In this document: piece by piece, positions 9,470-39,180 of the stretch
Layout: every line of letters starts with the position of its first letter
Numbering within the stretch: position 1 is the first letter of the stretch
Assembly (NCBI RefSeq): GCF_902652985.1
Contig: NC_047029.1
Span: 27,032,001 to 27,096,000, forward strand
Length of the DNA stretch: 64,000 nt
From: Pecten maximus
Taxonomy: Eukaryota
Reading direction: 5' to 3'
Notes under the pieces: generated by a model
What the model saw: only the letters and a program-made list of their open reading frames with translations
What the model was told of the DNA's origin: nothing
Databases searched by the model: none
Made by a program: the position numbers and the translations under genes

Positions 9470-9649
9470 GTAAATAACTTCTATATTTGTCTGACAATAA
9501 ATCTGTCCATGTCTGAAAATAAGCCCTTATCTGGGAATAAACCATAGTCTGATAAAAACCATTCAATCTCTGGCAATGAGCCCTTGCCTGGTAATAGAGC
9601 AGGCTATGTCTGATAATAGGCCTGTGTCAAGTAATGAGCAAACCCATGT

Positions 9650-11910: not shown

Positions 11911-12210
11911 TATATGCTGGTCTACTGGGTCTATTACAGGGTATTTACGGTATGGTCATAGTTCCCAGTAGAAGTCCTGATTTATAGGTCCAGGAACCTT
12001 AGATAAGATAGAACTGAAAGTTGTAACAGGTCTGTCATCAACAGAGTAGATTAAGCATTATGGGATGGGTGTAGGTAATTTGGCTTAGTTATAGGACTTG
12101 AGTTTTATTCATTGGCAGTAACATGTTTTTCCAATGATATACCATCATTTGTGATATTGAGTGGGAGATTTATTTTTGAAAAAAAAAAGTGTAGTGTGAA
12201 AGAACCAAAC

Positions 12211-14971: not shown

Positions 14972-15390
14972 CATGGTAATAAACCAATGTCTGGTAATAA
15001 ACCAATGTCTGGTAATAAATTCCTGTCTGGTAACAAGCCCATGTCTGGTACTACATCCATACCTGGTAATAAGCCTATATGTCTGGCAATAAGTCCATGT
15101 CTAGTAATAAGCCAGTGTCTGGTAATAAGTCCATGTCTAATAATAAGCATGTGTCTGGTAATATGTCCATGTCTAGTAATAAGTCCATGTCTGTCAAGAA
15201 GTCCATGTATAGTAATAAGTCCATGTCTGTCAATATGTCCATGTCTGGCAATAAGCCCATGCCTGGTAATAAGCATGTGTCTGGTAATATGTCCATGTCT
15301 AGTAATAAGTCCATGTCTGTCAATAAGTCCATGTATAAAGTCCATGTCTAATAATAAGTCTAATAAGCCCATATGTCTGGTAATAAGCCC
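14972..15390. repeat. 18-bp minisatellite ATGTCTGGTAATAAGTCC
   Basis: Tandem; related to the 9650 array. Confidence 0.9.
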
Positions 15391-15827
15391 ACTCATGTCT
15401 ACTGCAGTTCTATAAAAATGCTATTAAATGCTGTTTAATTGTATTGTCACCCCTATTTTGAGTAAAACCCTCTTAGGGTTATTACAGTATTAATACAGTA
15501 TTTACCTATGAGAGAAATGTAGTTATTTTCCTGATAAGGTTTGGTGTGATTTTAAATTCTGTGCTACTGTTAGATTCATTGATCAGACCAGGACATTATC
15601 AGAGCCCCACACTCAGACAGCGTGTCATGGTGATGTATATGTGGCAGTCTAAGCAGTGGAATTGAGGGAATCGAGAGTTCGTAATTACCCAGTATTGAAA
15701 AAGGTCCGCTGGACAGATTGATCTTTAGTGATAAAATAATCAATACATTTGTAGATCTTGGTTGTTAGGACTAAAGGAACTTGTACAGTAACTTTAGGAT
15801 GAGTGTCTATTCAATTATATAAGTCGA

Positions 15828-16097
15828 TCCCTACCAGAGAAACTGGGGAACTATACTTCTTCTCCATCCGTCTTGTATGCATGTATATATGTACGTAACA
15901 CCAAAATTTGTCAGTGTTCTTGAAGCGGTTTCATTCCTGATTGATTTTAATCAAACTTTTCACAATTACGAAGGACCACCATATCTCAGACAAGATTGAA
16001 TCAGGGTTTTGGGGTCAATGTTACTCTTACTACTTTTAGCCCAGGTCGTAGGGGTCGGTAGGGGACATGCATTGCCTTCGCAATACCTAGTATGTTT
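15828..16097 (+). mobile_element. HINE-like interspersed repeat (copies at 34241-34487 and partial ~25410-25512)
   Basis: CCTACCAG..AAACT 5' end; 3' hairpin TATTGCtttaGCAATA followed by CCnGTATG in all three copies. Confidence 0.55.
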
Positions 16098-17402
16098 GTT
16101 TATCTTGCATTAGGCTGATGGTCCAGCATTCAAGATGTGACTAAAAATTAGGATAACATTTAATGCTCTCAGGGATTTTCTTTAAAACTAAATTGCTGGG
16201 TCAAGTCTGCGTGTCGTAAACTTTTTATTTGTCCAGAGATCTCTTTAACATTCCAACCAATCTCATGTTACATTATTGTGCTTTCCTGATGAACATTTTA
16301 ATTAGGTCACCTGAGACGAAGTTTTGATACAAGAATATATGCTACAACAAAAAAAAAAAACAACAATGGCAGGAAACACTTCTCATCTCTATGTAATTGA
16401 TAGCAATTGATATCAGATATTAAGCACAAAATTGAGTTTTCAAGTGAGATGATCTCAAAAAAATTACTATTTTCATTTCACTTTGTTGGTTTCTCTTTGA
16501 ACTAGAACAGTGGTATTGAATTGGTAGGTAAAGTTATGGTCATTGAAGTAAGAATGTGGAGTAGGAAGATGAATGAACTAGAGTAACAGTGTAGGAGTTT
16601 GTATGGTGTGGCTGTGGTGGTAATTTATGTAAAATGACACAAATAATCCATAAATAAAGCCACTTTAAACAATTCCAATCGGTTACACCATCTTGTCCAA
16701 ATGCTGTTTGAGCAATTCTTTCCCATTAGCGTCGTTTGATGGAGAAATATTGACAGAAACTCCCGAGAGCCCACTCAATGGCTCTGGAGACGTAGCACTG
16801 CGTTGGTGTCCCAGCAATATTAATGGATCAGGCAGTCTGTAGGGAACGCAATCACAGCTAACATGAAATTTCTTAAAGCTAGGAAGGGTATTTTTGGTGG
16901 TTTGGCTCAGACAGCCATCATTCTTGGTAACGATTGTTGTTGGAGCTGTACTACTATATGGTTAAGAGTCTGCCGTGATAATGCTACTGTACCAAACCAT
17001 GGTATAAAACTGCAATACAGATACATCATCAGAATCAGACATCTACCAGAACCTCACTGTAGTAAATACTAGGGATTCCTTTCCTTTACAGTCACAGGAA
17101 ATCTTTGAATATTGTTGTGTGACCTTCAAAAACCTTGAAGTACTTTTGATATTAAAAATCTTTGAAATGAAGTCTGTGTCCTTGAAAAGTCCTTGACAAG
17201 CTAGGCTGTTCGTTGTGTATATGTATATATACTTGTAATTCAAATTGAAAGAGGGACTAAGTTTAAAAACTAGGTATGTGAATTAAAAAGTAAAAATTCA
17301 AAAGTTGAAATTCAGTGGCAGTTTGTGTACACATAGATTTCGAGAAATTGATCTTGAATTGTGAAGTATCTGTCATTAATAAATGATAATCTTTACATTA
17401 TT

Positions 17403-18377
17403 ATTAGCTCACCTGCCCAAAGGGCAAGTGAGCTTATGCCACTTCTTCTCAATAACCAAGAGGCCCAGTGACTTGATATTAGGCCTGTAGCATGCTGGGG
17501 TGAAGGGCTCTCAAGTTTGTTCAAATAAATGACCTTGACCTTAATTCATTCAATGTCACATGGGTCAAATAGGCTATAATCTTCAAAAGACTTCTTCTCA
17601 ATAACCAAGATGCCTCAGGGACTCGTTATTGGGCCTGTAACATGCTGGGGTGAAGGGCTACCAAGTTTGTTCAAATGAATGACCTTGACCTTCATTTAAG
17701 GTCACATGGGTCAAATAGGCTATGCTCTTCAAATGACTTCTTCTCAGTAACCAAGAGGCCCAGGGACTTTATATTGGGCCTGTAGCATACTGGGGTGAAG
17801 TGCTACTAAGTTTTTTTTAAATAAATGACCTTGACCTTTATTCAAGGTCACATGGGTCAAAAAGGCTATACTCTTCAAACAACTTCTTCTCAATAACCAA
17901 GAGGCCCAGGGACTTGATATTGGGCTTGTAGCATGCTGTGGTGAAGGGCTACCAACTTTGTTCAAATACATGACCTTGACTTTCATTCAAGGTCAGATAG
18001 GCTATAATCTTTAAATGACTTCTCATCAATAACCAAGAGGCCAAGGGACTTTATATTAGGCCTGTAGCATGCTGGGGTGAAGGGCTACCAAGTTTGTTTA
18101 AATAAATGACCTTGACCTACATTCAAGGTCACAGGGGTGAAATTGGCTTAAATCTATAAACAGTAATTTTACGATAGCCAAGAGTCTCTGAAACCTGATA
18201 TTAGGTAAATAGTATGCTGGAATGAAGGACTAGAACATTTATTGATATGAATAAACCTTAGCGTACACTGATATTTGAATAAACAGGTAATCAGCATAGT
18301 ATGTGTAGAAATGACCTCAATCAACTTCAATGTTGCTGTAGAGCCAGGTGAGCGATATAGGCCCATTGGGCCTCTTG
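17403..18377 (+). mobile_element. Helentron/HINE-like element with internal ~146-bp tandem repeats
   Basis: Subterminal inverted repeat GCTCACCTG...CAGGTGAGC; 5' short IR; 3' hairpin AGGCCCattGGGCCT; about 4.7 units starting at 17451, 17600, 17746, 17892, 18028. Confidence 0.75.
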
Positions 18378-18495
18378 TCATGATATTTATTACCAAAAAA
18401 GTGTTAAAGGTGACCCCATCCACTATATATATTTTTTATATATCATTTCTAACATGTGGGAGAGCGAGGCGGGATACATGTTTCACAAATATTTG

Positions 18496-18840
18496 TTATG
18501 CCCTCGCCAAAAAATAGGAGGTGGCGGCATATAGTGTTGCCCATATCTGCCATCACATTGCAATTGTGTCCTGTCACATCTCAACCCAATGCAATGTAAA
18601 CACTTATAAAATTAGCAACTTCATTGTTTGACAGGACAAGTAGGAATATATTTCGGACATCATTGTGTTTCAGGGTTCCAAGTTCAAGGCCAAGGTCACG
18701 CTTGCTATATACATTGTGTATATATAAAATTATTGATTGATTAAATTATAACACTTCATTCTTTCATGGATTTTAGTCAAACTTTATGTAGAGGTCACAT
18801 GACAGCAGGGACATTTATGTCTTACAGATATTTCCTAGTA
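18496..18840 (+). mobile_element. degenerate HINE-like interspersed repeat (related copy 2549-2760)
   Basis: Same terminal words; internal CAAGGTCAC motif. Confidence 0.45.
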
Positions 18841-18902
18841 CTAAGCTACAGATAAAGGTAAAGATCATCATTCTAAGTAAAAGTCAACCTTCTGTTTTAC
18901 AG

Positions 18903-18965
18903 ATTGGAGCTGCTCGTGGTAAACTGAGGAACTTTGTCATCGAACCATTTATCACACATACACAG
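18903..18965 (+). CDS. ACLY: ACLY exon 3 (IGAARGKLRNFVIEPFITHTQ)
   Basis: AG/GT boundaries, 63 nt, EPF motif. Confidence 0.93.
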
Positions 18966-19205
18966 GTACTGTACCTTGATAGACACGACCATGTTAAAAC
19001 AAAGAATTCCTTTTTTGTTTAATTCATTCTTAAGTAATATTAAGTGAAAGATAACATTTATCAGTTTTGTGTGGTAATACTTAAAAAGATTTGATTATTT
19101 AAAAAGTTTAATAATACACACACGTATCACTAAAGCCTTAGAAATTGGATTAAATTATGACTAGATACCCTGGTAATTGTTTTTTTTTTCTTTTTTTTCC
19201 CACAG

Positions 19206-19304
19206 GATGAAGAGTTTTATGTTTGTATATACTCACACAGACATGCAGATAGTATCCTCTTCCACCACGAGGGTGGTGTGGACATCGGTGATGTTGATGC
19301 CAAG
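19206..19304 (+). CDS. ACLY: ACLY exon 4 ([10 protein letters not shown]...[13 protein letters not shown])
   Basis: AG/GT boundaries, conserved EGGVD. Confidence 0.95.
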
Positions 19305-21346
19305 GTAATTAAACTGTTATCTAAATCTATATATAGTACGTACATAATATGATTTTGATCTGTTAATCTAAAATCAAAATGATTCTGATGAACAAGCTAA
19401 GGTTGCTTCCCTTTGTTATACTTATCTCTGCAATACAAAGACTTGCTAGTTTTTGTATAAAATTCCCAAAAAGAATTCGCTTCTCCAGAAATTACACAAG
19501 GAAGTAAACACACCTCTCCCTATATTAAGTCACTTCACAACTTTAACTAAACTAGGTATATAGCTAGATTACATAATGGACATCTCAACACACCCTTCAT
19601 TTACGAAATATCATCTAGAATTTATGGTCCATTACGTATACATGACTGGAAATTAGGGGTGCTGCCAATCTAGACTTTAATGTTGTGTGTTTTGCTTAGT
19701 TTCTCAGAAATTATCAACGTTATTTCAATCAAACCAGCAATTTAGTTTCATTCTAGTATGGCCATCTCAACACACCCTTCAGAAAACATAAATTTCAATT
19801 TTTTGCTTTTGTTTTTGGTTAAAAACCTTAGATTTTGATAGATTGATGTTAAATCTTAATTTCTTCTTCAGTTGATTTACAAGTTTGATTGTAGCCAAGT
19901 TGGAATTCATCCTATATATTCAATGTATTTTTTTCTCACTTTCCAGAAGGAGTGATTTTTGGGGTAAAAAATTACATATTGAGATGAATTTTGAGAATAA
20001 GTGCAGATTTTGTGAAATTTGATAATTGTTTTGCAACACAACATTAAGTGGAGGTTTTTTTGATGTTTTTTGAAAAAATACTTACATTTTAGTGAATTTT
20101 GGAGTTTTCTTAAAACTTACTATACTGACAAGGCAGAACAGGCAAGACATATATATGTGCACATGTATTTCCTGTATAAAATGCACCTTCTTTACATGAA
20201 CTGATGTAGAATGCCGTACATTAAAAGTTTTACAATGTTAATCACTGCTTTAAAATAAGATCCCTATGTCTTTTCTGATGTCTGTAAAAGATAACATACT
20301 TATTTATATAATTGTCTCGGTTTCAGATTCTTCAATCTAACATCAAATTAAATTGAAATTATATCACAATATTTCTCACAAAACGTAAATGTCTTCGGTC
20401 TGATGTTGAAAATTAATTTAATATACTGGAATCTGAACTTCTGCAGAATGTTTGCTGAAACAGCACATTACATCATTGACATTGTTTCAAGCTAACATTG
20501 CTTTGAAACTCTGAATCCTGTGGTGTAGAACCCGTATTTTGTAGATAAATCTATAGAATCTGTACAAGGCTTTTTAAATGTGAGCAAGGTTTAAATCGAT
20601 GCTAAGGGGTAGTAGCTATTTCTGAGCCACTAGATCAATAAGGGTTGTATGCTTCGTTCCAATGTGTATAACTAGCTAAGATGGAGGCAGTTTGGTTTCC
20701 CAATTATTTTTTTATTTAAAGATGTATGCTACCTCACTTATCTCCTTTCTTGAAGAGTTCCAATTCCAAGAGATTCTTCAGATTTTAACATAATATTAGA
20801 ATTTCATCTCCAGATATTGGTACAGTTGAAAAAGGTTATTATAGTGAGGAGCTTATAATGATAAAAAATGATTGTAAATTAATCAAACAATGAACTGAAA
20901 CTGATTATGTCAAATTGAAAAAAGTCAGTTTATCAGTACAGTATGAAGAGACTGTTTCCTATCTCAAATTATTCTGAAGAAGTATAAAAATGGTTTAAAT
21001 AGAGATTTATGTTCAGCTTACAGATTATAAAGGCTCAGATTCAAAGTTTTCAAGTACCTGTGATATATGTTTATTCCAAATTTACTTGGCTTTCAGTAAT
21101 TAAAACTCTCAGCTTTAATTACCTGGTATTCTTAGTTAACCTATAAAAACCAATATTTATCAACAATTTGTTGGTTTATATGCATTACATTATCAATTAT
21201 GAAAATGGTACCAATTCTAGGTCCAGAACAACATTTATTATATTGAGGTACATTCTGAGTTATAAGATAATGCTATTAATTATTCCAGATTAAACTATCT
21301 ATGGCTACAGTACAAACAAAAATGACTGAAATTCTTTTCGTTTTAG

Positions 21347-21438
21347 GCAGTTAAATTGGAGGTGCCAGTTGGGGAGGATTTGACCACAGAAGCTATCACC
21401 TCCACGCTACTTGTAAACGTTCCTGCTGCAGCCCACAG
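21347..21438 (+). CDS. ACLY: ACLY exon 5 (AVKLEVPVGE...AAH)
   Basis: AG/GT boundaries, phase fits both neighbours. Confidence 0.9.
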
Positions 21439-21499
21439 GTAGGTCAGCCACACATACACCTGGCATGTTCCTCTTTATGTCATTGTTTCAAAGAAGTAA

Positions 21500-22332
21500 A
21501 AAATAAAGGGAAATGTGATATAAAAAGAAATTTGATATTAAGAGAAATGTGTTTCAAAGAGCAATGTGGTATACAGATTGAAATGTCATATAAAGAGAAT
21601 CATGATAACAGAAATTGTTTTAAGGTTATGTGGTTTAAAGAGAAATATGATATAAAGGGGAAAATGATGAAAAGGAACACATGATATAAATACACATGTG
21701 ATATAAAAAGAAATGTGATATAAAGAGAAATATGATATAAAAGGAAATGTGATATAAAGGGAAATGTGATATAAAGGGAAATGTGATGTAAAGGGAAATG
21801 TGTTTCAAAGAGCAATGTGATTTACAGATTGAAATGTCATATAAAGAGAATCATGATAACAGAAATTGATTTTAAGGTTATGTGGTTTAAAGAGAAATAT
21901 GATTTAAAGGGGAAAATGATGAAAAGGAACACATGATATAAATACACATGTGATATAAAAAGAAATGTGATATAAAGAGTAATATGATATAAAGGGAAAT
22001 GTGATATAAAGGGAAATGTGATGTAAAGGGAAATGTGTTTCAAAGAGCAATGTGATATACAGATTGAAGTGTGATATAAAGAGAATCACGATAAAAAGCA
22101 TAATGCAATTTAAAAGAAAATATGATACATGTACCAATAAAATGTGATGCGTAGACAATGTAATTTAAGGGAAAATGTGATATAAAAAGAAATTGATTTT
22201 AAGGTTATGTGGTTTAAAGTGAAATGTAATTTAAAAGAGAAAATGATGAAAAGGAACTCATGATATAAATACAAATGTGATATAAAAAGAAATTTGACAT
22301 AAAGAGAAAATTGATATAAAGGGAAATGTGAG
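21500..22332. repeat. degenerate ~17-18-bp purine-rich repeat with ~235-250-bp higher-order blocks
   Basis: AAAGGGAAATGTGATAT units; GTTTCAAAGAGCAATGTG recurs at 21551, 21802, 22037. Confidence 0.85.
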
Positions 22333-22402
22333 CATTTTTGTATAAGATGTAAATTTATTGTTCTTGCCTGAGACCAGTAATATTCCCATTTTCCTTTGAC
22401 AG

Positions 22403-22482
22403 TGTACTAACAGCATTCCTACTAGCCCTTTATGAGGCCTACAAAGACCTACACTTTACTTACCTGGAGATCAACCCACTTG
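22403..22482 (+). CDS. ACLY: ACLY exon 6 (..DLHFTYLEINPL)
   Basis: LEINP motif, AG/GT boundaries. Confidence 0.95.
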
Positions 22483-23338
22483 GTAAGGCAAAGATTCCTC
22501 ATAGCTTCTGGTGGGAGGGAGAACTGATAAAGGAAACGATAGTTTTTATAGCAAGATAACAAGAAGTTTAATTTTGTGTTTGTATAATTTGGAACATTTT
22601 ACAGTTCAATATTTAGCCTCTTCATTTCACAGTTGTTATTTTATTTGAAGGCCATGAAAAACTCCATAAATTCAAGACTTATTTCCAGGATTCATTGATT
22701 TTACTATCTGTCCATTAAGAAAATAATCAGTTCAAATAGCAGATTAATTCATCTTTTTACTAGTTGGTATTTAGTTGATATAACAGGGGTTATATTTTGA
22801 TCTTAGATATGGTCCAATTTTCCTAACGTCTCATTGGCTAAAACATGGTCATGTGAAAGTTAATATTTTGAAATATTGACTTTATTTTTTATCATTCGAA
22901 ACACAGTGTTAATATTGCATTTATGATGTCATAATCATTATAATTTCACAATGCCCCAATGTTATCAAGAAAGATATAATGTAATTCCACCATTTTGCAA
23001 ACAAGTTTCATATATCTAATATAAAATTAAGGGCTTTTGGTAAGGTCAAAATGGTGTTAAAACGAACTTGGAGAAATTGAAATATACCTAGGGCTTCACT
23101 TTCTGTCAATATTTGATTCTACCAGGTTGGTACAACACCATATTGACCTCACCAAAGGTCTGTAATTGATAAATATCATAATATAATATGATACATTGTG
23201 CCATATTCTTTTTTTTTTTTGATTGTTGGCTTATACCTTTATCAACAACTTATACCTAATTATGTGAAGTATGGTAAATTTTTTGTAAAATTAAACTTAT
23301 TGAGAGAGATTCCTGAAGTCTTGAAACCTTTTTGACAG

Positions 23339-23469
23339 TGTTTACGGGAGGAAAGATCTACATCCTAGACCTGGCAGCTAAGATTGACCAGTGTGCAGAG
23401 TACCTGTGTAAGGCTAAATGGGGAGAAATGTCCTTCCCTCCGCCCTTTGGTAGGGACGCACTTCCTGAG
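23339..23469 (+). CDS. ACLY: ACLY exon 7 (..[21 protein letters not shown])
   Basis: Conserved motifs, AG/GT boundaries. Confidence 0.95.
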
Positions 23470-23904
23470 GTAAGTCGATACCTTCCTGTGAAGTCAGATA
23501 ATGAAAATGTTCACTTAACCATTAAGATGTCAATCAAACTACCCACCAAACATATCAAACATCGTGTCCAGATCTAAGTATGAGAATGAAGCAATAGTGT
23601 AGCCTTTTCCAGTCCTTTTCCTATTTGTTTTTTAGTTGTAACTACAATGACAGATTTATTTTGTTTCTTGTATTATGACATGAATGCATCAACCGATTTA
23701 GTTCATATTCACACCATAAAAACACAAGATCAATTGCTACACCTGATTACAGTTTGGTGCTCATTGGTGAAGAATAAAGGGTCAAAGGTTAGACATAACT
23801 TTTGAAAAATTGTTTTAAGTTAACCATCTACACCATTAACTGATGAAGAGGTGGGGTGGAATATGTGGGCGATGACCTCATCACTTTATTTATATCTTAC
23901 ACAG

Positions 23905-24023
23905 GAAGCATATATAGCTGACCTTGATGCTAAGAGCGGTGCTTCTCTAAAGCTGACCATTCTCAACAAAAAGGGACGGATCTGGACTATGGTTGCTGGT
24001 GGTGGAGCCTCGGTGATATTCGC
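23905..24023 (+). CDS. ACLY: ACLY exon 8 ([30 protein letters not shown])
   Basis: Conserved motifs, AG/GT boundaries. Confidence 0.95.
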
Positions 24024-24448
24024 GTAGGTCATCAAACTTGTTTACATTTACTTTGTTTAAATATTGGTATGACTCATATTTTTTTTTCCATCTCAGAGCT
24101 GGTTTTTAGGGTTATTTTCACTGTTTGATTAAACATTAATTTAACATCTTCAGTACCTTATGTATTTTGATTTCATTGAAGTTTTTTATTCTCTTGCTAA
24201 TTATATATATAAGAACAACAACAAAGAATACCAACATAACAAAACCATAATTCTTTCTCAAAATAAAACCAGGGCAAAATTTGAATATAAATTGTATGGA
24301 GACCATAAAAAAATACAAGAAGAACAAGACCAAGTGTTCAGGAAGAGTAAGGGTCTTCTGTTTCATTGATGACACCTGCAATACAAATCTAGGTCAACAA
24401 AGTCATAAGGAGGGAAAATACAGTTCTATATTTGTTCTGCATTTCCAG

Positions 24449-24585
24449 AGACACTATATGCGACCTAGGAGGAGCTCCAGAGTTAGCTAATTACGGCGAG
24501 TATTCCGGAGCACCCAGTGAACAACAGACATACGAGTATGCTAAAACAATCCTTGGTTTGATGACACAAGAAACTCATCCTGATG
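24449..24585 (+). CDS. ACLY: ACLY exon 9 ([21 protein letters not shown])
   Basis: Conserved motifs, AG/GT boundaries. Confidence 0.95.
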
Positions 24586-24696
24586 GTAAGTGTAGTTTGA
24601 TATGCAGTATTAATTGTTTAGACTTAAGGGGACCACACCTTCTAACAGTTGGAGATGTATCAAAATGTAAGCGCCATATACAATGTACCTTTTACT

Positions 24697-24912
24697 GTGT
24701 AAACTCTATTTATTTTACAACAATTTGCAAAACAAGTTATATCAACTTATATAATCATGAGGGGTCTTACTGTGGGAGAAACCCGGAGTACCCGGGAAAA
24801 ACCCATGTGGTCAGGCAGGTGACACCATACCTTTTCACATCCAATCAGGGAATTGAACCCTGGCCGCCCAGGTGAAAGGCAAGTGTGTTACCACTGTGCC
24901 ACGTGACCACCC
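24697..24912 (-). mobile_element. tRNA-derived SINE, second family
   Basis: Reverse complement shows A/B-box-like head and GGGTTTTTCCCGGGTACTCCGGGTTTCTCCCAC core; similar copy at 39417. Confidence 0.75.
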
Positions 24913-25302
24913 TAAAACTATCAACACAGTATTTTCAGATTCTCTGGTGCGTTGTAAATGTTTGTGCTAAAAACTTTACTTTTAACTAAAATGAATACAA
25001 TTCAAACTAACAGGTATTTGTTTTGTGTTCCAAATTGTAATGAGCAATAACTGTCATCTTTGATTTTTGTACTCTCTTAGCAAGAGAGACAACACCACTT
25101 CATTCAAGGGTTAATCTGATGCACTGAATTTTGAGTAATATACAAAAATATATCCGTTTAAATGTAGAAATTTGATAATAATGGTTTAAGTTACAATTAT
25201 GACACACTTCAGGTTCTATGAAAATATCATATAAAACAAACATTAGGCTACAGAAACATTTCCTGTGAAATCTACATGTAAGGTTGTTCCACTGTTTTAC
25301 AG

Positions 25303-25364
25303 GTAAGATCCTGATAGTTGGAGGTGGAATCGCCAACTTCACCAATGTCGCTGCCACATTTAAG
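25303..25364 (+). CDS. ACLY: ACLY exon 10 (GKILIVGGGIANFTNVAATFK, citrate-binding loop)
   Basis: Conserved motif, AG/GT boundaries. Confidence 0.95.
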
Positions 25365-25686
25365 GTAAAGTACAAGTAATGCCCAAAATAGACAAACGGT
25401 AGGTCAGTTTGAGGGATTCTGGTCAAGGTTAAGCTTAAGGTCACTGTAACTGTTTTTGAAGGGGGTGGCCAGTAGGGAATATGTATTGCTTTAGCAACAC
25501 CCAGTATGCTTGATGGGCTCGTATCACAAAACACTGCCCTATAAAAAAAAAATTTTGAATGGACATCACCAATAATAGTCAAAATCTTCAGGGGAGATAA
25601 CTCACACAAAGTGTGCATGTATATGATTATGTAAGTTATAGACAATATTAACTTTGTTTTGACAATATTAATAACTTTATTTTCAG

Positions 25687-25804
25687 GGAATTGTGAGAGC
25701 ATTGCGAGAGTTCCAACAACAGCTGATCGAAACAAAGACCAGCATCTATGTGAGGAGGGCAGGGCCTAACTACCAAGAGGGCCTGAGGATCATGAGGGAA
25801 TTAG
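25687..25804 (+). CDS. ACLY: ACLY exon 11 ([24 protein letters not shown])
   Basis: Conserved motif, AG/GT boundaries. Confidence 0.95.
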
Positions 25805-25816
25805 GTAAGGGTTTCT

Positions 25817-26604
25817 TAGGGGTTAATGATAATACTACTAGGGGCTAATGATAATGCTACTAGGGGTTAATGATAATGCTACTAGGGGTTAATGATAATG
25901 CTACTAGGGGTTAATGATAATACTACTAGGGGTTAATGATAATACTACTAGGGGCTAATTATAATGCTACTAGGGGTTAATTATAATGCTACTAGGGGTT
26001 TAATACTACTAGGGGTTAATTATAATGCTACTAGGGGTTAATGATAATACTACTAGGGGTTAATGATAATACTACTAGGGGTTAATGATAATACTACTAG
26101 GGGTTAATGATAATGCTACTAGGGGTTAATGATAATGCTACTAGGGGTTAATGATAATGCTACTAGGGGTTAATTATAATGCTACTAGGGGTTAATTATA
26201 ATGCTACTAGGGGTTAATGATAATACTACTAGGGGTTAATTATAATGCTACTAGGGGTTAATGATAATGCTACTAGGGGTTAATGATAATGCTACTAGGG
26301 GTTAATGATAATACTACTAGGGGTTAATTATAATGCTACTAGGGGTTAATGATAATACTACTAGGGGTTAATTATAATGCTACTAGGGGTTAATTATAAT
26401 GCTACTAGGGGTTAATGATAATACTACTAGGGGTTAATTATAATGCTACTAGGGGTTAATGATAATGCTACTAGGGGTTAATGATAATGCTACTAGGGGT
26501 TAATGATAATACTACTAGGGGTTAATTATAATGCTACTAGGGGTTAATGATAATACTACTAGGGGTTAATGATAATACTACTAGGGGCTAAAGATAATAC
26601 TACT
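25817..26604. repeat. 22-bp minisatellite TAGGGGTTAAT(G/T)ATAAT(A/G)CTAC, about 35 copies
   Basis: Tandem periodicity. Confidence 0.95.
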
Positions 26605-26647
26605 CGGTAAATCATCAGTTGTACAAGATTAGACAAGAGCTTTACTG

Positions 26648-28732
26648 TAAGGAATTAGATAGGGGTATCTGTTGTTGTCTCTGCCAATAGGAATTAGATA
26701 GGGGTATCTGTTGTAGACTCAGGAACAAGGGAACTAGATAAGGGCCTATGTTGTAGGCTCTGTCACAAGGGAACTAGACAAGGGCTTATGTTGTAGGCTC
26801 AGCTACAAGGGAACTAGATAAGGGCCTATGTTGTAGGCTCAGCCACAAGGGAACTAGATAAGGGCTTATGTTGTAGGCTCTGTCACAAGGGAACTAGATA
26901 AGGGCCTATGTTGTAGGCTCTGTCACAAGGGAACTAGATAAGGGCCTATGTTGTAGGCTCAGCCACAAGGGAACTAGATAAGGGCCTATGTTGTAGGCTC
27001 AGCCACAAGGGAACTAGATAAGGGCCTATGTTGTAGGCTCAGCCACAAGGGAACTAGATAAGGGCTTATGTTGTAGGCTCTGTCACAAGGGAACTAGATA
27101 AGGGCCTATGTTGTAGGCTCTGTCACAAGGGAACTAGATAAGGGCCTATGTTGTAGGCTCAGCCACAAGGGAACTAGATAAGGGCCTATGTTGTAGGCTC
27201 AGCCACAAGGGAACTAGATAAGGGCTTATGTTGTAGGCTCTGTCACAAGGGAACTAGATAAGGGCCTATGTTGTAGGCTCTGTCACAAGGGAACTAGATA
27301 AGGGCCTATGTTGTAGGCTCAGCCACAAGGGAACTAGATAAGGGCCTATGTTGTAGGCTCTGTCACAAGGGAACTAGATAAGGGCTTATGTTGTAGGCTC
27401 AGCCACAAGGGAACTAGATAAGGGCCTATGTTGTAGGCTCAGCCACAAGGGAACTAGATAAGGGCTTATGTTGTAGGCTCTGTCACAAGGGAACTAGATA
27501 AGGGCCTATGTTGTAGGCTCAGCCACAAGGGAACTAGATAAGGGCTTATGTTGTAGGCTCTGTCACAAGGGAACTAGATAAGGGCCTATGTTGTAGGCTC
27601 TGTCACAAGGGAACTAGATAAGGGCTTACGTTGTAGGCTCAGCCACAAGGGAACTAGATAAGGGCCTATGTTGTAGGCTCAGCCACAAGGGAACTAGATA
27701 AGGGCCTACGTTGTAGGCTCAGCCACAAGGGAACTAGATAAGGGCCTATGTTGTAGGCTCAGCCACAAGGGAACTAGATAAGGGCTTATGTTGTAGGCTC
27801 TGTCACAAGGGAACTAGATAAGGGCCTATGTTGTAGGCTCTGTCACAAGGGAACTAGATAAGGGCTTACGTTGTAGGCTCAGCCACAAGGGAACTAGATA
27901 AGGGCCTATGTTGTAGGCTCAGCCACAAGGGAACTAGATAAGGGCTTACGTTGTAGGCTCAGCCACAAGGGAACTAGATAAGGGCCTATGTTGTAGGCTC
28001 AGCCACAAGGGAACTAGATAAGGGCCTATGTTGTAGGCTCAGCCACAAGGGAACTAGATAAGGGCTTACGTTGTAGGCTCAGCCACAAGGGAACTAGATA
28101 AGGGCCTATGTTGTAGGCTCAGCCACAAGGGAACTAGATAAGGGCTTATGTTGTTGGCTCTGCCACAAGGAATTAGATAAGGGCTTATGTTGTAGGCTCA
28201 GCCAGAATGAAACTAGATAAGGGCTTATGTTGTAGGCTCAGCCACAAGGGAACTAGATAAGGGCTTATGTTGTAGACTCAGGAACAAGGGAATTAGATAA
28301 GAGCTTATTTTGTAGGCTCAGCCACAATGAAACTAGATAAGGGCTTATGTTGTAGGCTCAGCCACAAGGAAACTAGATAAGGGCTTATGTTGTAGGCTCT
28401 GTCACAAGGGAACTAGACAAGGGCTTATGTTGTAGGCTCAGCTACAAGGGAACTAGATAAGGGCCTATGTTGTAGGCTCAGCCACAAGGGAACTAGATAA
28501 GGGCTTACGTTGTAGGCTCAGCCACAAGGGAACTAGATAAGGGCCTATGTTGTAGGCTCAGCCACAAGGGAATAGATAAGGGCTTATATTGTAGGCTCTG
28601 TCACCAGGGAATAGATAAGGGCTTATGTTGTAGGCGCTGTCACAAGGGAATAGATAAGGGCTTATGTTGTTGGCTCAGCCACAAGGCAATAGATAAGGGC
28701 TTCTTATGGAAGGCAGCTACAAGGGAACTAGA
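26648..28732. repeat. 40-bp minisatellite ACAAGGGAACTAGATAAGGGCCTATGTTGTAGGCTCAGCC, about 50 copies
   Basis: Tandem periodicity. Confidence 0.95.
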
Positions 28733-29101
28733 TATTGGTTACTATTACAAGAGAATTAGATTAAGCCACAATTGTAGGACTCGCACACTAAGAAATCTTC
28801 AATGTTTCTGCTGATGTTTGCGATGTGATACTGATATTATAGTTCAAGGTTGTTCTGTACGATAAACTCTCAGAGCTATGACAAGTGGCATTTTATGTCT
28901 GAGGGATATAATATCTGTTACCCAACAATGTAATACATTTGTTTACTAATGTAATATCACCATGATATGGTAAATCTGACATGATTGATATTTCTGTATA
29001 GTTTTTCACTTCAACTATTTTTTTGAATATCAAATTTGATATTTGAGAGAATATATATCATATTTAGACATTTCTTAGTAAATGACACCTCTGATTTCCA
29101 G

Positions 29102-29247
29102 GTAACACTCTAGGAGTGTCTATCCATGTATTTGGACCAGAGACACACATGACCTCTATTGTCAGTATGGCTCTTGGCAAGCGAGAGATCCCGGATAACC
29201 CTAAACCCATGCAGACCACAGCCAATTTCCTCCTACCTACTGGTGGG
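29102..29247 (+). CDS. ACLY: ACLY exon 12 (..IHVFGPETHMT..TTANFLLPTGG)
   Basis: Conserved motif; donor GGG|gtatgt is phase 0, matching exon 13. Confidence 0.92.
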
Positions 29248-29467
29248 GTATGTAGTTACCATAGCAACACTTCACAGTGTTTAAGTTGGTGGGGTAAATA
29301 GCTACCATAGCAACACTACACAGTGTTTAAGTTGGTGGGGTAAATAGTTACCATAGCAACACTACACAGTGTTTAAGTTGGTGGGGTAAATAATTACCAT
29401 AGCAACACTACACAGTGTTTAAGTTGGTGGGGTAAATAGTTACCATAGCAACACTACACAGTGTTTA
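29241..29467. repeat. 46-bp tandem repeat spanning the exon 12 donor, about 5 copies
   Basis: TGGTGGGGTA at 29241, 29287, 29333, 29379, 29425. Confidence 0.9.
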
Positions 29468-30839
29468 GTTCATCTTCTTTTCTCATTTTGTTGAAGTAGG
29501 TAGTTATCACTGCAACAGTATTTTAAATTCAGCTTCTTCTTCCCTTCTGGTTTTAGCCATGGATACATAGTTACTATAGCAACACATCATTATGGGGTTT
29601 CATAGTTACCAAACAACAGAGCTTAATGTCCAGAACTGCAGTTAATATGCAAGTAGATACCAATTAGTAGATTGTGTAGTTTAACAATCTGGACTGAATA
29701 AAGTGCCGTACAAATGCCTGTAAAGCTAGTTCTAGACAATACTCTGATTTATTTATTTTTATGAAACAAGGTTTTTGTATTATATTAATGTCAGATGTAA
29801 CAATTTAGGGTAAAGGCATCCAAAATTGAGGATGGTAATGATCTGCCATGATAATGTATCTGTTTAGAATTTAGAGGGTTATGGCTTTAAAGAAATATAA
29901 AACTATTTTTGAAATTCAACACAGGGACTTTTACCATGTGAGAACTCTGTACTTTGGGAGAATTTAGGGTTATTGAAGTTTTAAAGACAAGTATCTTTTA
30001 TAAGTGAGTTCAGACACATGTGTTACAAGCATACAGCTAGCTACAAAGATTAAGTTTCTATGACATTCAACAGAAGTTAATTGTTTGAACATTAACTGAA
30101 AATAATTGATAATAGAAAGAACTTTTTTAAAAGGCAAAATTATTTCTGATGTGGAATTAATTAGCATATTAATATAAAATAAATATTATATAAAACTTTA
30201 TGGCAAAGAATATTGTGTTTAACACTAACTAATTTGTGTGGCTTTAATATTTTACCTTCCTCACACCCCCTCACACCTAATTGAACTGGTCAGTTTATAA
30301 TAACTGGGACAGTCATTTGAGGCAACCCAGGGGAAGTAAGATTGATAATGAGTGAAAATAATATGATATTGCTTTATTAATTACTAAGGCCAAGTGCAAA
30401 AATTTATGTTTCCTGCCAATCAATATTACACAAAAAGTAGATAAAGTGGATGAAAAGTTATTTTTCAAGGAAAAATACTGATTACATGTGCACATTATTT
30501 AAAGATGCAGATACAGAGCTAGGCTCTCGTGATCAATAGAGAAAATTTTGGTGTTAATTGTCAAGTTGTTTCTGACTAAAGTTGCATGAGAATTGCTCAC
30601 TGGTGAAATGTGACCATAATTTCCTAGTTGTAAAAAGTTTTGATAATGAAAAGAAAACAATAACTTCAAAACCTGTCAAAAAAACTGTTCATACAATTAA
30701 TTAACCAAATATTGACATAAAACAAAGAAAATAAGAAAACAGGAAAAAATTTGTTTTTGATAAACATATATTTGTTTCATTGGCCTTTTGGATTTCCCGC
30801 TTTGTTAGATATATATTTTGTTTGATATCTTTATTTCAG

Positions 30840-30854
30840 TCAAAAGCGTCTTTA
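30840..30854 (+). CDS. ACLY: candidate 15-nt ACLY microexon (SKASL)
   Basis: T-rich tract ..ttatttcag|TCAAAAGCGTCTTTA|gtaagt; phase 0-0, no stop. Confidence 0.6.
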
Positions 30855-31167
30855 GTAAGTGCCTTAGTAGCAGGATGTGAAAAAAAGTTCTGTATATGTT
30901 TATTGAGATGCATTTGATGCATGATGTTGAGAAATGTCAGCCTCTGATTTAGATTTACAGTAGAATGTTAATTATTTGAACCTGACAGAAGATCTATAGA
31001 GGATCATGCCAAAGGAATCAAAGTCTAATTCCTATGATCTTACATGAGTGGCTACATGTATGTTGTGTGGAATTTATTAAACTCGTTCAGTAATTTGATT
31101 TGCCACCAGTCACTAGACTTTTGGCAAGTGGCATATTAAATTATTGAACAAGTTTGATCAATTTTGT

Positions 31168-33268
31168 ATGTCAGATATATAGTCCAATGTCATATATAGT
31201 CCATATGTCAGATATAGCCCAATGTCATATATAGTCCATATGTCCATGTCAGATATAGTCCATATGTCCATGTCAGATATAGTCCATATGTCCATGTCAG
31301 ATATAGTCCAATGTCAGATATAGTCCATATGTCCATGTCAGATATAGTCCATATGTCCATGTCAGATATAGTCCATATGTCAGATATAGTCCAATGTCAG
31401 ATATAGTCCAATGTCAGATATAGTCCATATGTTATATATAGTCCATATGTCCATATGTCAGATATAGTCCATATGTCAGATTGTCAGATATAGTCCAATG
31501 TCAGATATAGTCCAAAGTCATATATAGTCCAATGATAGATATAGTCCAATGTCATATATAGTCCATATGTCCATGTCAGATATAGTCCATATGTCAGATA
31601 TAGTCCAATGTCAGATATAGTCCAATGTCAGATATAGTCCATATGTTATATATAGTCCATATGTCCATATGTCAGATATAGTCCATATGTCAGATTGTCA
31701 GATATAGTCCAATGTCAGATATAGTCCAAAGTCATATATAGTCCAATGATAGATATAGTCCAATGTCATATATAGTCCATATGTCCATGTCAGATATAGT
31801 CCATATGTCAGATATAGTCCAATGTCAGATATAGTCCAATGTCAGATATAGTCCATATATTATATATAGTCCATATGTCCATATGTCAGATATAGTCCAT
31901 ATGTCAGATTGTCAGATATAGTCCAATGTCAGATATAGTCCAAAGTCATATATAGTCCAATGATAGATATAGTCCAATGTCATATATAGTCCATATGTCC
32001 ATGTCAGATATAGTCCAATGTCAGATACAGTCCATATGTTAGATATAGTCCAAATGTCAGATATAGTCCAATGTCAGATATAGTCCATATGTCCATATGT
32101 CCATATGTCCATGTCAGATATAGTCCAATGTCAGATACAGTCCATATGTCAGATATAGTCCAATGTCAGATATAGTCCATATGTCAGATATAGTCCATAT
32201 GTCATATATAGTCCATATGTCAGATATAGTCCAATGTCAGATATAGTCCAATGTCAGATACAGTCCATATGTCAGATATAGTCCAATGTCAGATTGTCGG
32301 ATATAGTCCAATGTCAGATATAGTCCAATGTCAGATATAGTCCATATGTCAGATATAGTCCAATGTCAGATTGTCAGATATAGTCCAATGTCAGATATAG
32401 TCCAATGTCAGATATAGTCCATATGTCAGATATAGTCCATATGTCATATATAGTCCATATGTCAGATATAGTCCAATGTCAGATATAGTCCAATGTCAGA
32501 TATAGTCCATATGTCAGATATAGTCCAATGTCAGATTGTCAGATATAGTCCAATGTCAGATATAGTCCAATGTCAGATATAGTCCAATGTCAGATATAGT
32601 CCAATGTCAGATATAGTCCAATGTCAGATTGTCAGATATAGTCCAATGTCAGATATAGTCCATATGTCCATGTTGGATATAATCCATTTTCAGATATAGT
32701 CCAATGTCAGATAGTCCATATGTCAGATATAGTCCAATGTCAGATATAGTCCAATGTCAGATATAGTCCAATGTCAGATATAGTCCAATATCAGATATAG
32801 TCCATATGTCAGATAAAGTCCATATGTCAGATATAGTCCAATGTCAGATATAGTCCAATGTCAGATTGTCAGATATAGTCCAATGTCAGATATAGTCCAA
32901 TGTCAGATATAGTCCAATGTCAGATTGTCAGATATAGTCCAATGTCAGATATAGTCCATATGTCCATGTTGGATATAGTCCATTTTCAGATATAGTCCAA
33001 TGTCAGATAGTCCATATGTCAGATATAGTCCAATGTCAAATATAGTCCATATGTCAGATATAGTCCAAATGTCCATTTGTCTGATATAGTGATATGTCAA
33101 TTTATCAGATAAAGTCCATTGTCAGATAAAGTCCATTGTCAGATATAGTCCATCGTCAGATATAGTCCAATGTCAGATAGTCCATATGTCAGATATAGTC
33201 CAATGTCAGATATAGTCCAATGTCAGATATAGTCCATCATCAGATATAGTCCATATGTCAGACATAGT
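31168..33268. repeat. 17/18-bp minisatellite TGTCAGATATAGTCCA(T)A with 214-bp higher-order repeat
   Basis: Marker variant at 31514, 31728, 31942. Confidence 0.95.
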
Positions 33269-33407
33269 ATTTAAAATTTTGAATAGTTATGGTTCGAACA
33301 ATCAGCATTCTACTGTGTTTTGAATTGAAATTTGTTTTTATGTTCTGAAATATTAATTGTAAATGTTTGATATTAACATTTAACCTTTGACCCTGTTTGT
33401 TTTACAG

Positions 33408-33416
33408 GTTGTACAG
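33408..33416 (+). CDS. ACLY: candidate 9-nt ACLY microexon (VVQ)
   Basis: taacctttgaccctgtttgttttacag|GTTGTACAG|gtatat; phase 0-0. Confidence 0.55.
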
Positions 33417-34240
33417 GTATATCATTAGCTTTTAGTCTATAGATGTTTCTGTCACTTTAACATGGGCATGCAGTATATCATATTTTATAGTGATACACCA
33501 ATGTCCAGGAATAAGCCCACCTCGACACCATTCACTATGTTAACAGAGTTTATAAAGGACAAGTCTAGGCTGGGAAATAAAATAAAACCTTAACACCTGT
33601 TATAAACCATATTTACTTTTATAATAACTACATATTCTAAGATCACCAAAAAATGAAGTTTTAAATATGCTGTGCTTGTACTGCTAAAGAAGTCAGTTGT
33701 ATGCCATTTTCATTTGACTCCAAGTAATTCTTAAACAGATTTATGCAATGTAGGAGTATTAAAAAATTACTACACTCCAGCTTTATTATGAATATTCAAT
33801 TGACTGATTTATATTAGTAAGTTGGAAAATTTCTTTAAATTAACACTTTTTCTTAACCCACTTTTGTTTTCCAATAGAAATACTTCATGGGTTTTCTTAA
33901 ATAAGGTGCTGTCTTTTTGTAAAACATTACCTTCATATCCATTTTACCCCATTTCCAAGATCTTCATTTTAATATAAGGGTTTGTGTTGTAATTTGTCTC
34001 TATATTGTGTGTTTGTCTGCCTAGTTACTAGCTATATACATTGTATGTTAAAACTGGGGTCAAAAATTAAAAATGTGAATATGCCCTGGATGAGGTAGCA
34101 ATTAAAATGGTTTTCTAGTGTCAATGTTTTTGATTGTATAAAATTGCAAAAATTCTCAGCTCTGAGCGATAAGAAACCAGTACCTGAGCAAAGCTTTTAC
34201 CAACATTATTCCATATTATAACAGAAATCATAACTGGTCA

Positions 34241-34487
34241 TATTAGTCTCCTACCAGTGAAACTAGGTTTCTGTCCATCTTGTACATATGTACGTACATA
34301 ATGCCAAAGTTTGTCAGCGCTCGACCACCATCAATCATTCATTGAGGAATTTTGACAAAACTTTACGCAGTGATAAAGGACCATAATATCTTGGACAAGT
34401 TCGAGTTTCAGGGTTTTTGGGCCACCTGCTGTTTAAAATAGGGGCTATAGGAGACATGTATTGCTTTAGCAATACCCGGTATGCTTC
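34241..34487 (+). mobile_element. HINE-like interspersed repeat (same family as 15828)
   Basis: Co-linear similarity, including AAGGACCAtaATATCT..GACAAG. Confidence 0.55.
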
Positions 34488-34537
34488 TTTAAAAATAAAT
34501 AACTATTAATTCTAATATCTGAGGATGCAAATGTTAC

Positions 34538-34790
34538 CTATGGACATTGCTTCCTAGAGGTGTCATGGTTCAGAGTTAGTGTATCTACTAGGATACAACA
34601 ATTACCCATGGACATTGCTCCCTAGAGGTGTCATGGTAAAGAGTTGGTGTATCTACTAGGATACAACAATTACCCATGGACATTGCTCACTAAAGGTGTC
34701 ATGGTTCAGAGTTAGTGTATCTACTAGGATACAACAATTACCCATGGACATTGCTCCCTAGAGGTGTCATGGTAAAGAGTTGGTGTACAT
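34538..34790. repeat. 68-bp tandem repeat, about 4 copies in alternating A/B variants
   Basis: TGGACATTGC at 34541, 34609, 34677, 34745. Confidence 0.9.
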
Positions 34791-35764
34791 TGTATCTAGT
34801 AGTATTCCAATTGTTTCCTGTTTCTAGTCTGATTGGAAGTTGAAATGGAGTGCTACTAGGCGGTCTCTATGTTGTCTAAGGTGGCGTGGATGTTTTAAGG
34901 TACGGACTCGAAGTTCATGTTTAGTTTCCCCAATGTATTGTTTGCATTTGGAGCAGGTGATTGTTTAGTAAATGAGGATTTGGGAAACGTAGCTACCTGG
35001 AAGTTTGTCTTTGTACAATAGTTTTGTGAATGTGCTGATGAAGTGTTTGCTAATGCAGACTGTGTAATTGTACTATTTGCAGTCAATTACGGGGTATTAA
35101 TATGAGTTTAGCAGAGCCTTACTGCAGACCAGGCTTAGTGGAGTATTATGCCTTTTCAATAGACTTTAATGAGAGTTGTGGAACAGTTTTTGCCACAAAA
35201 TTGATATACAGCAGTTCTGGCATATTGTACATATCATTGTTTGATGGAAGGCTATCGCTGTGATTACAAATGGTCTGACGAGTGACTACATCAGAAGTAA
35301 TAAAATTTTTGGTCAGTTGTTATATATAAGATGTAGAAGACTATTTGGTTCAATCCCTTCATTTGGAATTTTTAATTATCAAATTTAGTCTGTTGTATTT
35401 GAAGTGTCTGGACTTGTGCATGATGGTATTTAAAGGAGCATGCATACATATCAACGGTATCATATATTGTATAAAGTGTATTTTGTATATGCACTGGGAC
35501 ACATGTTGTATTGTGAGTATTTTGTAAACTGATATCATTGTTTGTGGAATATGTATATTAGCACTAACTGCTGCATGTGGCGCACAGGGGATCAATAAAT
35601 GAGGATATGCAAGGGAGATCACTCCATCATAACAAGGGCAGATCATGTACTGGTAGATTGCACTGGCTGTAGGTGTCATACAAGGGGTGTTAATCGCTTT
35701 TAGCATATGCTTAATTTTCAGCAGAGAATGCTTTACTTGAGCATTTGGCCTTCACTAGGCTTTT

Positions 35765-36080
35765 ATAAACCCACCATCATCAGATGGTAGGATATTCAAA
35801 TCAATCTTTGTCTGTAGTCTGTTGGCTGTCGTCTGTAAACTGATAACCCTTGTAATATTTACTATTTCTTGAGAAGCACTTGAAGGATATTTCTCAAACT
35901 TTTCATATAAGTTGTGTTTTCTACTTCAATCTTTCTTAGATTTCATGTGAAGGTTTTCTTATTAATCAAATGATTAAGAAAAAAATGGGAAAGAAAGAAA
36001 TGTAGAGAAAAGATCAGTCTTCCATAGAACCAATAAAGACCATTCAGTGGTGGGTGCTAAGATCCCTCTGGGATCCCTTG
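35765..36080 (+). mobile_element. HINE-like interspersed repeat (inverted copy 58824-59323)
   Basis: CCCACCATCAtcaGATGGT 5' IR; 3' GATCCCTCTGGGATC hairpin. Confidence 0.5.
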
Positions 36081-37274
36081 TATGGTCTTTGACAGTACAA
36101 ACCTCTCTGGAAGTTCCTGTTTGTCAGATTTGTTGAGTCAAAATTATTGTAACAAGCTGATGATTTTGTCATTTGATTGAAATGCAGTACATGTATATCT
36201 TTTAATGATAAAAATAGTTTACACTTATAATATCTTTGAAAACCTTGGGTAAGATTTTACTAAGATAATGATAGTGTTCTGGGACCTGGTGTTACTAAAT
36301 ATAGATCTAGTGTTTACAGCTGAAAGGTTGTCAGAAAAAAAATGTGGCACCTAAGCATGCACAGTAAAACAAACAAATTTTAATTGTAATCTAAACTATC
36401 ATCCTCCTGCCGACATTTTACAAATCTCCAAAAAGAGCAGTGTTGAAGTGAATAAGGAATAGAAAAAAATAAGTAAAGGGTTTTGTGAAATCAAATTGAA
36501 TGTTTATTGCAAGATTGACAAAGTTCAGAAAAATAATATCTCTCCTGGCTATATCTGAACCACCAGTTCCTCTCACAATTGCAATTGTTAAATATCTCTA
36601 TTTTTTATCTGATTAGAATTGTCAATTCATCTGACAGTGTATTTTTTAGGAGATGTATTTTGAGATCCACCACCAGTAGTAATGTATGGTTTCCACCCTT
36701 TGTATGTAGTCTTAACAAGTACTATTAGTACACTTTACTAACCATACCAAACAATATTTATTTTAAAATTATTCACTTATTGATTATTTATATTGTTTGC
36801 TTTGTTCATCCTTTAAACAAAAATAAACTTCAATTAAATATTGTAGACTGAATTTAAGAATAGAAAACAAGTCAACTTTCAGGTTGAAAAATCAGTGGAA
36901 CACTTTTTGTAATATCTTATCTTTGAATTACTGGATTGATGAAAGTATTAAGAAAAATCTTTCCAATGCTTCACAGTTAAAAGGAAGAAATAAAGTTATT
37001 GATGATGCGGAGGTTTTGAATTTTTCTAGTTTAGAATTGTATGATATGTGAGTGCTGTCTACTTAACCTTCCTACTGATATTGGACCCATAATCTTACAT
37101 AACAGGGATCTGTAATTAAATGCATTTTGAATATGAAGGGAGATAATTCCACCTGTTTTGTCTGATAAATTTCGCTATGAAGCGTTATTAAGCATAAAAA
37201 AAGAATTTCTAATTTTTATATACAATGATCTTTTGACAAAGAAATGATTTTCTTTTTCTTTTTGACATTTACAG

Positions 37275-37519
37275 CAGTCCCCCTCCAGTAGCCGGAGAAG
37301 TTCAGTGGTGGAAGGCAGATCACCGTCAAAGTCGTCGGACTCTGTGGGCGGTACCACCCAGAAGTCGACCACACAGGGTAACACAGGACCCTTGTTTACG
37401 TACAAGACAAAGTCTATCATATGGGGCATGCAGCAACGTGCCGTACAAGGCATGCTGGACTTTGATTACGTCTGCTCACGTAAAGAGCCATCTGTGGTAG
37501 CCATGATCTATCCATTCAC
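37275..37519 (+). CDS. ACLY: ACLY exon 13 (Ser-rich linker [10 protein letters not shown].. then [20 protein letters not shown])
   Basis: NAGNAG acceptor (alternative start 37278); conserved start of the CoA-binding domain. Confidence 0.93.
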
Positions 37520-37894
37520 GTAAGATTCTGTGTGATCCCCTTATATGACATTAGTCATTGAAGGACATTAAAATCTAGAGGAATTAGAAGACAATTTTAG
37601 ATATTTTAACCAACCAAATGAAAATATTGAACATTCTGATAATATGTTAATGGTAAAGAGTGCCATACATGGAAAGCATGACTCCAGATTGTTTGATACT
37701 GTTACCAAATGAATGAAAATATAATGTGTTATACAGGATAATTATGAATATGCTGAAGAGTGCCATATAGACCATGCTTGACTCAATACTGCTCGATTCT
37801 ATTTCTAAGACATTCATCATTTTTTCTAATCTGTTGAAATTTGACAATTTGCTAAATTGATATACATGTATTTATATATTTACTGCACTTTCAG

Positions 37895-37947
37895 TGGAGA
37901 CCACAAACAGAAGTTTTACTGGGGACACAAGGAGATCCTGGTACCAG
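37895..37947 (+). CDS. ACLY: ACLY exon 14 ([17 protein letters not shown])
   Basis: Conserved motif, AG/GT boundaries. Confidence 0.95.
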
Positions 37948-38181
37948 GTATGTGGTACTCCCTCCAATCAACAGACTATGAGAAAACTGTATACTGTACT
38001 AATCCGTAAATAATTTCCTGTGCACAAATAACCCTTTCCTTAATCTTATAGTAATCTTGAATTATACACAGTAACCAAAATGTTGTTCACAAATAAGGCC
38101 TCATTGTCATCATGAAGAAATTTGAATATTTTCAGTCATTGTCACAATTCCTACAATGACCTTGACCTACTCTGTTTTCAG

Positions 38182-38297
38182 TATATAAGAGTATGGCCGA
38201 TGCCATGGCAAAGCACAAAGAGGCTGATGTTTTAGTCAGCTTTGCATCCCTTAGATCTGCCTATGAGAGCACCATGGAAACTCTGAATTTCCCTCAG
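38182..38297 (+). CDS. ACLY: ACLY exon 15 ([21 protein letters not shown])
   Basis: Conserved motif, AG/GT boundaries. Confidence 0.95.
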
Positions 38298-38504
38298 GTA
38301 AGTTCTACCTGTGTGAGTGCATCCAAAAATTATGTATCTCAAAAAAAACAAAAAAACAAAAAAACAATAAATAATAAAAAACAATAAATAAAAAAAACAA
38401 AAACAGAAAATGTACTGCAGATAGGAAACAGCTAAATAATTATCATTTCAGGAACCATATGTCAATTTTCTGAAATCATTTCATTATCTTGGTTTTTGTT
38501 TTAG

Positions 38505-38609
38505 ATTCGAACCATAGCCATCATAGCAGAAGGAATCCCTGAGAATTTGACAAGGAACCTCGTGAAGAAAGCCATTGAGAAAGGTGTATCTATCATAGGT
38601 CCAGCTACA
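38505..38609 (+). CDS. ACLY: ACLY exon 16 ([19 protein letters not shown])
   Basis: Conserved motif, AG/GT boundaries. Confidence 0.95.
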
Positions 38610-39088
38610 GTAAGTGCTTGTTTTATTTATGACAGTGCAATTGATTTTGGTAAAGTCACGATTGTGATACATGTTTTAATTTATATATTATCTACTATTT
38701 TAATGATATTGGATTCTTAAAAAATGAAATACTGTGTTTTGATTGATACACAGTGTGTCAAAATGTAGTATTCCCGTTGTGACACAGTTTGTCAATAAAT
38801 TATCTCCATTTGTATCACAGTTTGTAAATAATTTACATAGTTTGACAGTAAGTTGTCTCCCTTCATGCCAAAGTTTTCAATAACTTATCTCCCTTTGTGA
38901 CACAGTTTGTAAATAGGTTTATTCCCTTTAAATCTGTAATGTCAGTAAGTTATCTCCCTTCGAAACATAATTATCAATAATTCACCTCCCTTAAACTTGG
39001 AAACATTGTCCTTTAGTTTTTATCTCCCTTTTAACATATAATAAGTTACCTCCCTTCCTCTCTGATAATCATGTGTTATCTCCCATAG

Positions 39089-39180
39089 GTTGGTGGTGTG
39101 AAGCCTGGATGTTTTAAGATAGGTAACACTGGAGGTATGCTGGACAATATTCTGGCCTCTAAACTCTACAGACCAGGCAG
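39089..39180 (+). CDS. ACLY: ACLY exon 17 ([22 protein letters not shown])
   Basis: Conserved motif, AG/GT boundaries. Confidence 0.95.

Follow-up and report, generated by a model that had tools for sequence, protein, structure and literature searches.

An optional 15-nt exon of the Pecten maximus ATP-citrate lyase gene at a linker junction with recurrent inserts in molluscan proteins

A described mammalian counterpart of the exon considered here is exon 14 of human and mouse ATP-citrate lyase (ACLY), which codes for 10 residues including S481. In the available part of PMC11260853, human exon 14 is described as controlled by ESRP1, and its removal as having no detectable effect on enzyme activity, cells or mice. 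The same part of that source gives human ACLY S455 as an AKT/PKA site that primes GSK3 sites, and prints 'T477' where the aligned human chain gives T447. Two splicing programs offer further comparisons. Rbfox proteins are described as promoting inclusion when bound downstream of an exon and skipping when bound upstream of it (PMC11380049, available part), and an upstream UGC is the described signature of targets of the SRRM4/eMIC program, which is reported to be ancestral to bilaterians (PMC10551640, available part). With these systems we compared a 15-nt coding stretch, SKASL, in the ACLY gene of the scallop Pecten maximus, within a window of 64,000 nt (the whole stretch of DNA analysed, contig NC_047029.1, positions 27,032,001 to 27,096,000). 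The features on which the comparison turns are as follows, in window coordinates.

8944..52733, + strand: host gene, a fused animal-type ACLY with 29 constitutive coding exons (isoform mapping and Pfam domains)
29102..29247, + strand: coding exon 12, constitutive, upstream of the microexons, ending PTGG (isoform mapping)
30583..30588, + strand: another TGCATG, 257 nt 5' of the SKASL exon (sequence)
30780..30839, + strand: T-rich acceptor region ending TTTCAG, with a TTGAT branch-point-like site at -18 (sequence, splice scoring)
30840..30854, + strand: 15-nt cassette microexon SKASL, phase 0/0, residues 441-445 of isoform X1 (X1 mapping)
30855..30860, + strand: donor GTAAGT (sequence, splice scoring)
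30918..30923, + strand: TGCATG at +64 of the SKASL exon, a candidate site for Rbfox (sequence)
33408..33416, + strand: second microexon, 9 nt (VVQ), used in isoform X2 (mapping, contigs, splice score)
33466..33470, + strand: GCATG at +50 of the 9-nt exon (sequence)
37275..37519, + strand: coding exon 13, constitutive, downstream, with the S447/S451/S455 ladder and the remaining linker (mapping, alignment, transcript contigs)

Exon 13 had a single match in its own genome, which lay within the window, and its best protein match was scallop ACLY, in a cluster containing three RefSeq P. maximus isoforms (XP_033762911.1, XP_033762912.1 and XP_033762913.1). A script requiring exact residue identity and canonical splice sites placed all three proteins on the window and set coding intron 12 at 29248-37274, in phase 0. 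Isoform X1 (XP_033762911.1, P0124) matched the window letter for letter and used 30840-30854 as a coding exon, isoform X2 (XP_033762912.1) carried the 9-nt exon in place of SKASL, and isoform X3 (XP_033762913.1) carried neither; the three are identical except for SKASL or VVQ at residue 441. These XP records are predicted models, of a kind that NCBI usually builds from RNA-seq. The exon examined here and that of XP_033762911.1 are the same, with no difference between them, and the SKASL exon is thus already known, its exact coordinates being in the public RefSeq annotation. A sequence-only reading had described the locus as a T-rich tract, CAG, 15 stop-free nt, GTAAGT and a TGCATG at 30918, all of which proved exact, and the isoform mapping upheld its matching of a phase 0 exon to a phase 0 intron 12; its expectation that gene predictors would likely miss the exon was wrong. 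No study of scallop ACLY isoforms was found among the titles and abstract openings of the papers listed.

The insert (residues 441-445) lies between the Pfam domains Citrate_bind (241-417) and CoA_binding (488-593), in a stretch whose counterpart in the human alignment is the disordered segment 429-493, and ends one residue before S447 of the ladder. Scallop S447/S451/S455 (X1 numbering) align with human T447/S451/S455, of which T447 is presumably the residue meant by 'T477', and on this alignment the three scallop serines may likewise be phosphorylated. The placement, together with the mapping, supports the earlier proposal of an optional, frame-keeping microexon in the ACLY linker beside the phosphosites. 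Mammalian exon 14 resembles it in being a small, frame-keeping, optional exon of the same disordered linker; however, it lies ~30 residues further downstream and after the ladder, whereas the scallop insert precedes it, and at the position of human exon 14 the scallop gene has no intron but continuous coding exon 13. In the aligned proteins the scallop insert (441-445) and the human exon (around S481) do not share a position, and judged by these alignments human exon 14 is a parallel, not an ortholog, of the scallop microexon. The suggestion of convergence with vertebrates stands only loosely, for a small optional linker exon in both, the human exon lying elsewhere in the linker and being regulated by ESRP1. 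In two apparently mis-predicted fish models (P0074 and P0103) the break falls where human residues 446/447 align, so that the intron as such may be old. A role for SKASL as an extra rung of the i-4 GSK3 ladder was rejected, since the scallop inserts place A, M or L four residues before S447; that the insert instead breaks the ladder is speculation (the skipped form has T at -4, but Mytilus lacks that register).

Splice signals were scored with a matrix built on the gene's own 28 constitutive donors and 28 constitutive acceptors. The SKASL acceptor (9.0 bits) and donor (6.3 bits) fell within the range of the gene's real sites, and the exon fits the usual description of a cassette microexon in being very short, bounded by canonical AG/GT and frame-keeping. 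The 40.5 kb of intron yielded 28 frame-keeping candidates (3-30 nt), of which it ranked 4th, and local dinucleotide shuffling of intron 12 produced an equally strong candidate 18 times in 100, so that the splice signals alone are not beyond chance and support for the exon comes from annotation and conservation. The VVQ exon ranked first of the 28 and was matched in none of 100 shuffles. SKASL was the sole coding stretch of the form S-[IKV]-[AVM]-S-L in intron 12. Two further frame-keeping short-exon candidates (18828-18857 and 38821-38847) scored slightly above SKASL and are absent from the three mapped RefSeq isoforms. Poor scores led us to set aside an alternative donor 12 nt downstream (-4.5 bits) as well as the NAGNAG acceptor of exon 13 (0.2 bits). 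Elsewhere in the gene, a 46-bp tandem repeat of 4.9 copies (29241-29467) begins within the end of exon 12, and the donor-like GGTGGGGTA recurs in it four more times.

Transcript evidence came from the contig sets of 4 of 24 runs, aligned to exons 13-15, in which the downstream GT-AG joints agreed with the gene model. Exon 12, VVQ and exon 13 were joined in contigs of run X1 and run X3 (coded samples), exon 12 was joined directly to exon 13 in run X4, and the contigs of run X11 ended short of this junction; the exon 12/13 junction is thus used alternatively in transcripts, with VVQ or with neither microexon. The SKASL junction, which the sequence-only reading had proposed to look for in RNA-seq, appeared in the contigs of none of the three informative runs among the four. 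Because contigs drop minor forms, this is no proof of absence, although it points to forms other than SKASL as the main ones in the sampled runs. Included and skipped forms are both present among the RefSeq models. A search for shorter proteins gave five matches, all of them bivalve-like read-throughs of exon 12 and none with the SKASL insert.

At the protein level the insert is conserved among scallops, as evidenced by S-x-x-S-L-type inserts in all four scallop species compared: SKASL in Pecten and Ylistrum, SIMSL in Argopecten and SIVSLSL in Mizuhopecten. A search for SKASL in molluscan ACLY isoforms, also suggested earlier, was thereby answered. By protein position, SIMSL and SIVSLSL appear orthologous to SKASL. 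Of the nine members of the scallop cluster, four have the S-x-x-S-L insert, two have VVQ, three have neither and none has both; in Ylistrum the insert is present in the sole model listed. Since the middle residues differ (KA, IM, IV), leaving two of the five variable, the length and place of the insert would seem to matter more than its sequence.

The same junction carries inserts well beyond scallops. We surveyed 30 clusters that were hand-picked for likely isoforms, so that the numbers are biased by this choice. Some records have an insert at the junction and others lack it in Crassostrea gigas (VVQ), a bivalve-like cluster (IVQ) and four Mytilus species (9-10 residues); in the gastropods Patella caerulea (LMQ), Haliotis rufescens (LAK) and Gigantopelta (RSK); and in three Octopus species and a squid-like cluster, with NMQ and a 9-residue insert. 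Records differ in this way also in Biomphalaria (GPQ, LLNCW or both), Physella (IFFPG) and the brachiopod Lingula (two inserts of 5 residues). The caenogastropod and nemertean records listed have no insert at the exon 12/13 junction. An extension to chelicerates was rejected, MM/MQ after PGG being present in the records of spiders, scorpions, ticks and mites alike; in the chelicerate Oedothorax one of three models has a 5-residue insert starting with V, which may be donor read-through. From the protein records, the 3-residue insert, whose last residue is mostly Q, seems to be of old origin among molluscs, and as it recurs in bivalves, gastropods and cephalopods, VVQ would be a better candidate than SKASL for an ancient microexon. 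Relative to the 3-residue exon, the longer insert is on the 5' side in the scallop (30840 < 33408) and on the 3' side in the proteins of Octopus, squid, Biomphalaria and Elysia; because length and order differ between lineages, the comparison suggests that the longer inserts were gained separately.

The explanation that best accommodates these results, and probably the correct one, is that SKASL is an optional 15-nt exon of the annotated ACLY isoform X1 that would supply a five-residue spacer before presumed kinase sites. It would be one of two microexons of intron 12 and likely be included in a minority of transcripts; a spacer fits better than a motif, and the insert might act on access of a kinase or partner rather than on catalysis. 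A measurable effect is doubtful, and would probably be small. A serious competitor, which we hold to be quite possible though short of probable, is that the exon is real but near-neutral, the disordered linker tolerating frame-keeping inserts and small exons turning over without acquiring a job. The lineage differences in length, sequence and order of the second insert, the two variable residues among scallops and the lack of an overt effect of exon 14 deletion in human and mouse, as given in the available part of PMC11260853, speak for neutrality; the retention of a similar insert in four of four scallop species and the recurrence of inserts at exactly one junction in many taxa speak against it.

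Inclusion of SKASL is rather likely to be tissue-biased, and two regulators were weighed. A (U)GCAUG in the proximal downstream intron, the position expected for Rbfox-enhanced inclusion, is present at 30918; a TGCATG within 100 nt has a chance probability of ~0.02 at the intronic rate and follows none of the 28 constitutive donors, but was spotted post hoc. The GCATG at +50 of the VVQ exon has a chance probability of ~0.05 and follows 1 of 28 constitutive donors, and the VVQ exon was not chosen for the motif; taken together, GCATG occurs 50-65 nt downstream of both microexons versus 1 of 28 constitutive donors. The SKASL exon thus resembles Rbfox-enhanced cassette exons in its own downstream element and in that of its neighbouring microexon, and differs from them in its upstream TGCATG, where Rbfox would be expected to repress. 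On these motifs, Rbfox acting through the downstream UGCAUG may tentatively be named the best single candidate regulator of SKASL. The other proposal, that SKASL is a neural microexon of the SRRM4/eMIC program and not an Rbfox target, is improbable: its 15-nt size, frame preservation and disordered location do resemble those of SRRM3/4-dependent neural microexons, and the program is bilaterian-ancestral in the available part of PMC10551640, but unlike them neither scallop microexon has a TGC in the 100 nt upstream, and the form retained in the contigs of two runs is VVQ. A genome search with the Pfam models Fox-1_C and SRRM_C gave no match and, run without a positive control, is uninformative.

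That SKASL reflects noise in splicing or an artefact of annotation, with a few reads having promoted a chance AG...GT pair, is very hard to credit. Its signals are equalled in shuffles and its junction was not seen in contigs, but RefSeq records of four genera share the residue position of an S-x-x-S-L insert, among them the only listed model of Ylistrum. The SKASL cassette microexon is very probably real.

The optional-spacer reading makes SKASL an ordinary annotated isoform, and the recurrence of inserts at its junction across molluscs is the more interesting lead. In its fullest form, which we regard as unlikely when taken whole, intron 12 would be a lophotrochozoan hotspot in which an ancient 9-nt exon (variants VVQ, IVQ, LMQ, LAK, NMQ, GPQ, GRQ and RSK in bivalves, gastropods and cephalopods) was joined by second exons that arose repeatedly and independently (SKASL in scallops, and inserts of 9-13 residues in mussels and Ostrea, of 9 in cephalopods and of 5 in pulmonates, with two of 5 in Lingula), all of the inserts lying immediately before the Akt/PKA-GSK3 ladder and forming an Rbfox-driven, tissue-specific switch of phospho-control that evolved apart from mammalian exon 14. 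The titles and abstract openings of the papers listed held no description of a mollusc-wide insert pattern at this ACLY junction; the main text of a cross-bilaterian splicing preprint (10.64898/2026.09.05.749416) mentions neither ACLY nor citrate, and its supplementary tables may list the octopus exons. With no function found for linker splicing in mammals, recurrent mollusc inserts beside the kinase ladder could serve as a separate experiment of nature on whether ACLY, a central acetyl-CoA enzyme, is tuned by the splicing of its linker.

Three minor observations concern the window and other ACLY proteins. The exon at 42292-42385 has a second copy of its 3' end ~330 nt downstream (42671-42712), directly before a 6-kb array of 26-bp tandem repeats (42740-48740). 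On the minus strand, 59662-59946 holds an exon for the ribosomal protein L27e (Pfam PF01777), ~7 kb downstream of ACLY; the human ACLY and L27e genes presumably share a chromosome band. Nemertean ACLY records (Lineus and Tubulanus; P0207/P0284/P0282 and P0167/P0166) have optional inserts of 10-16 residues at 333-334, which marks another variable site of the enzyme, within the citrate-binding domain.
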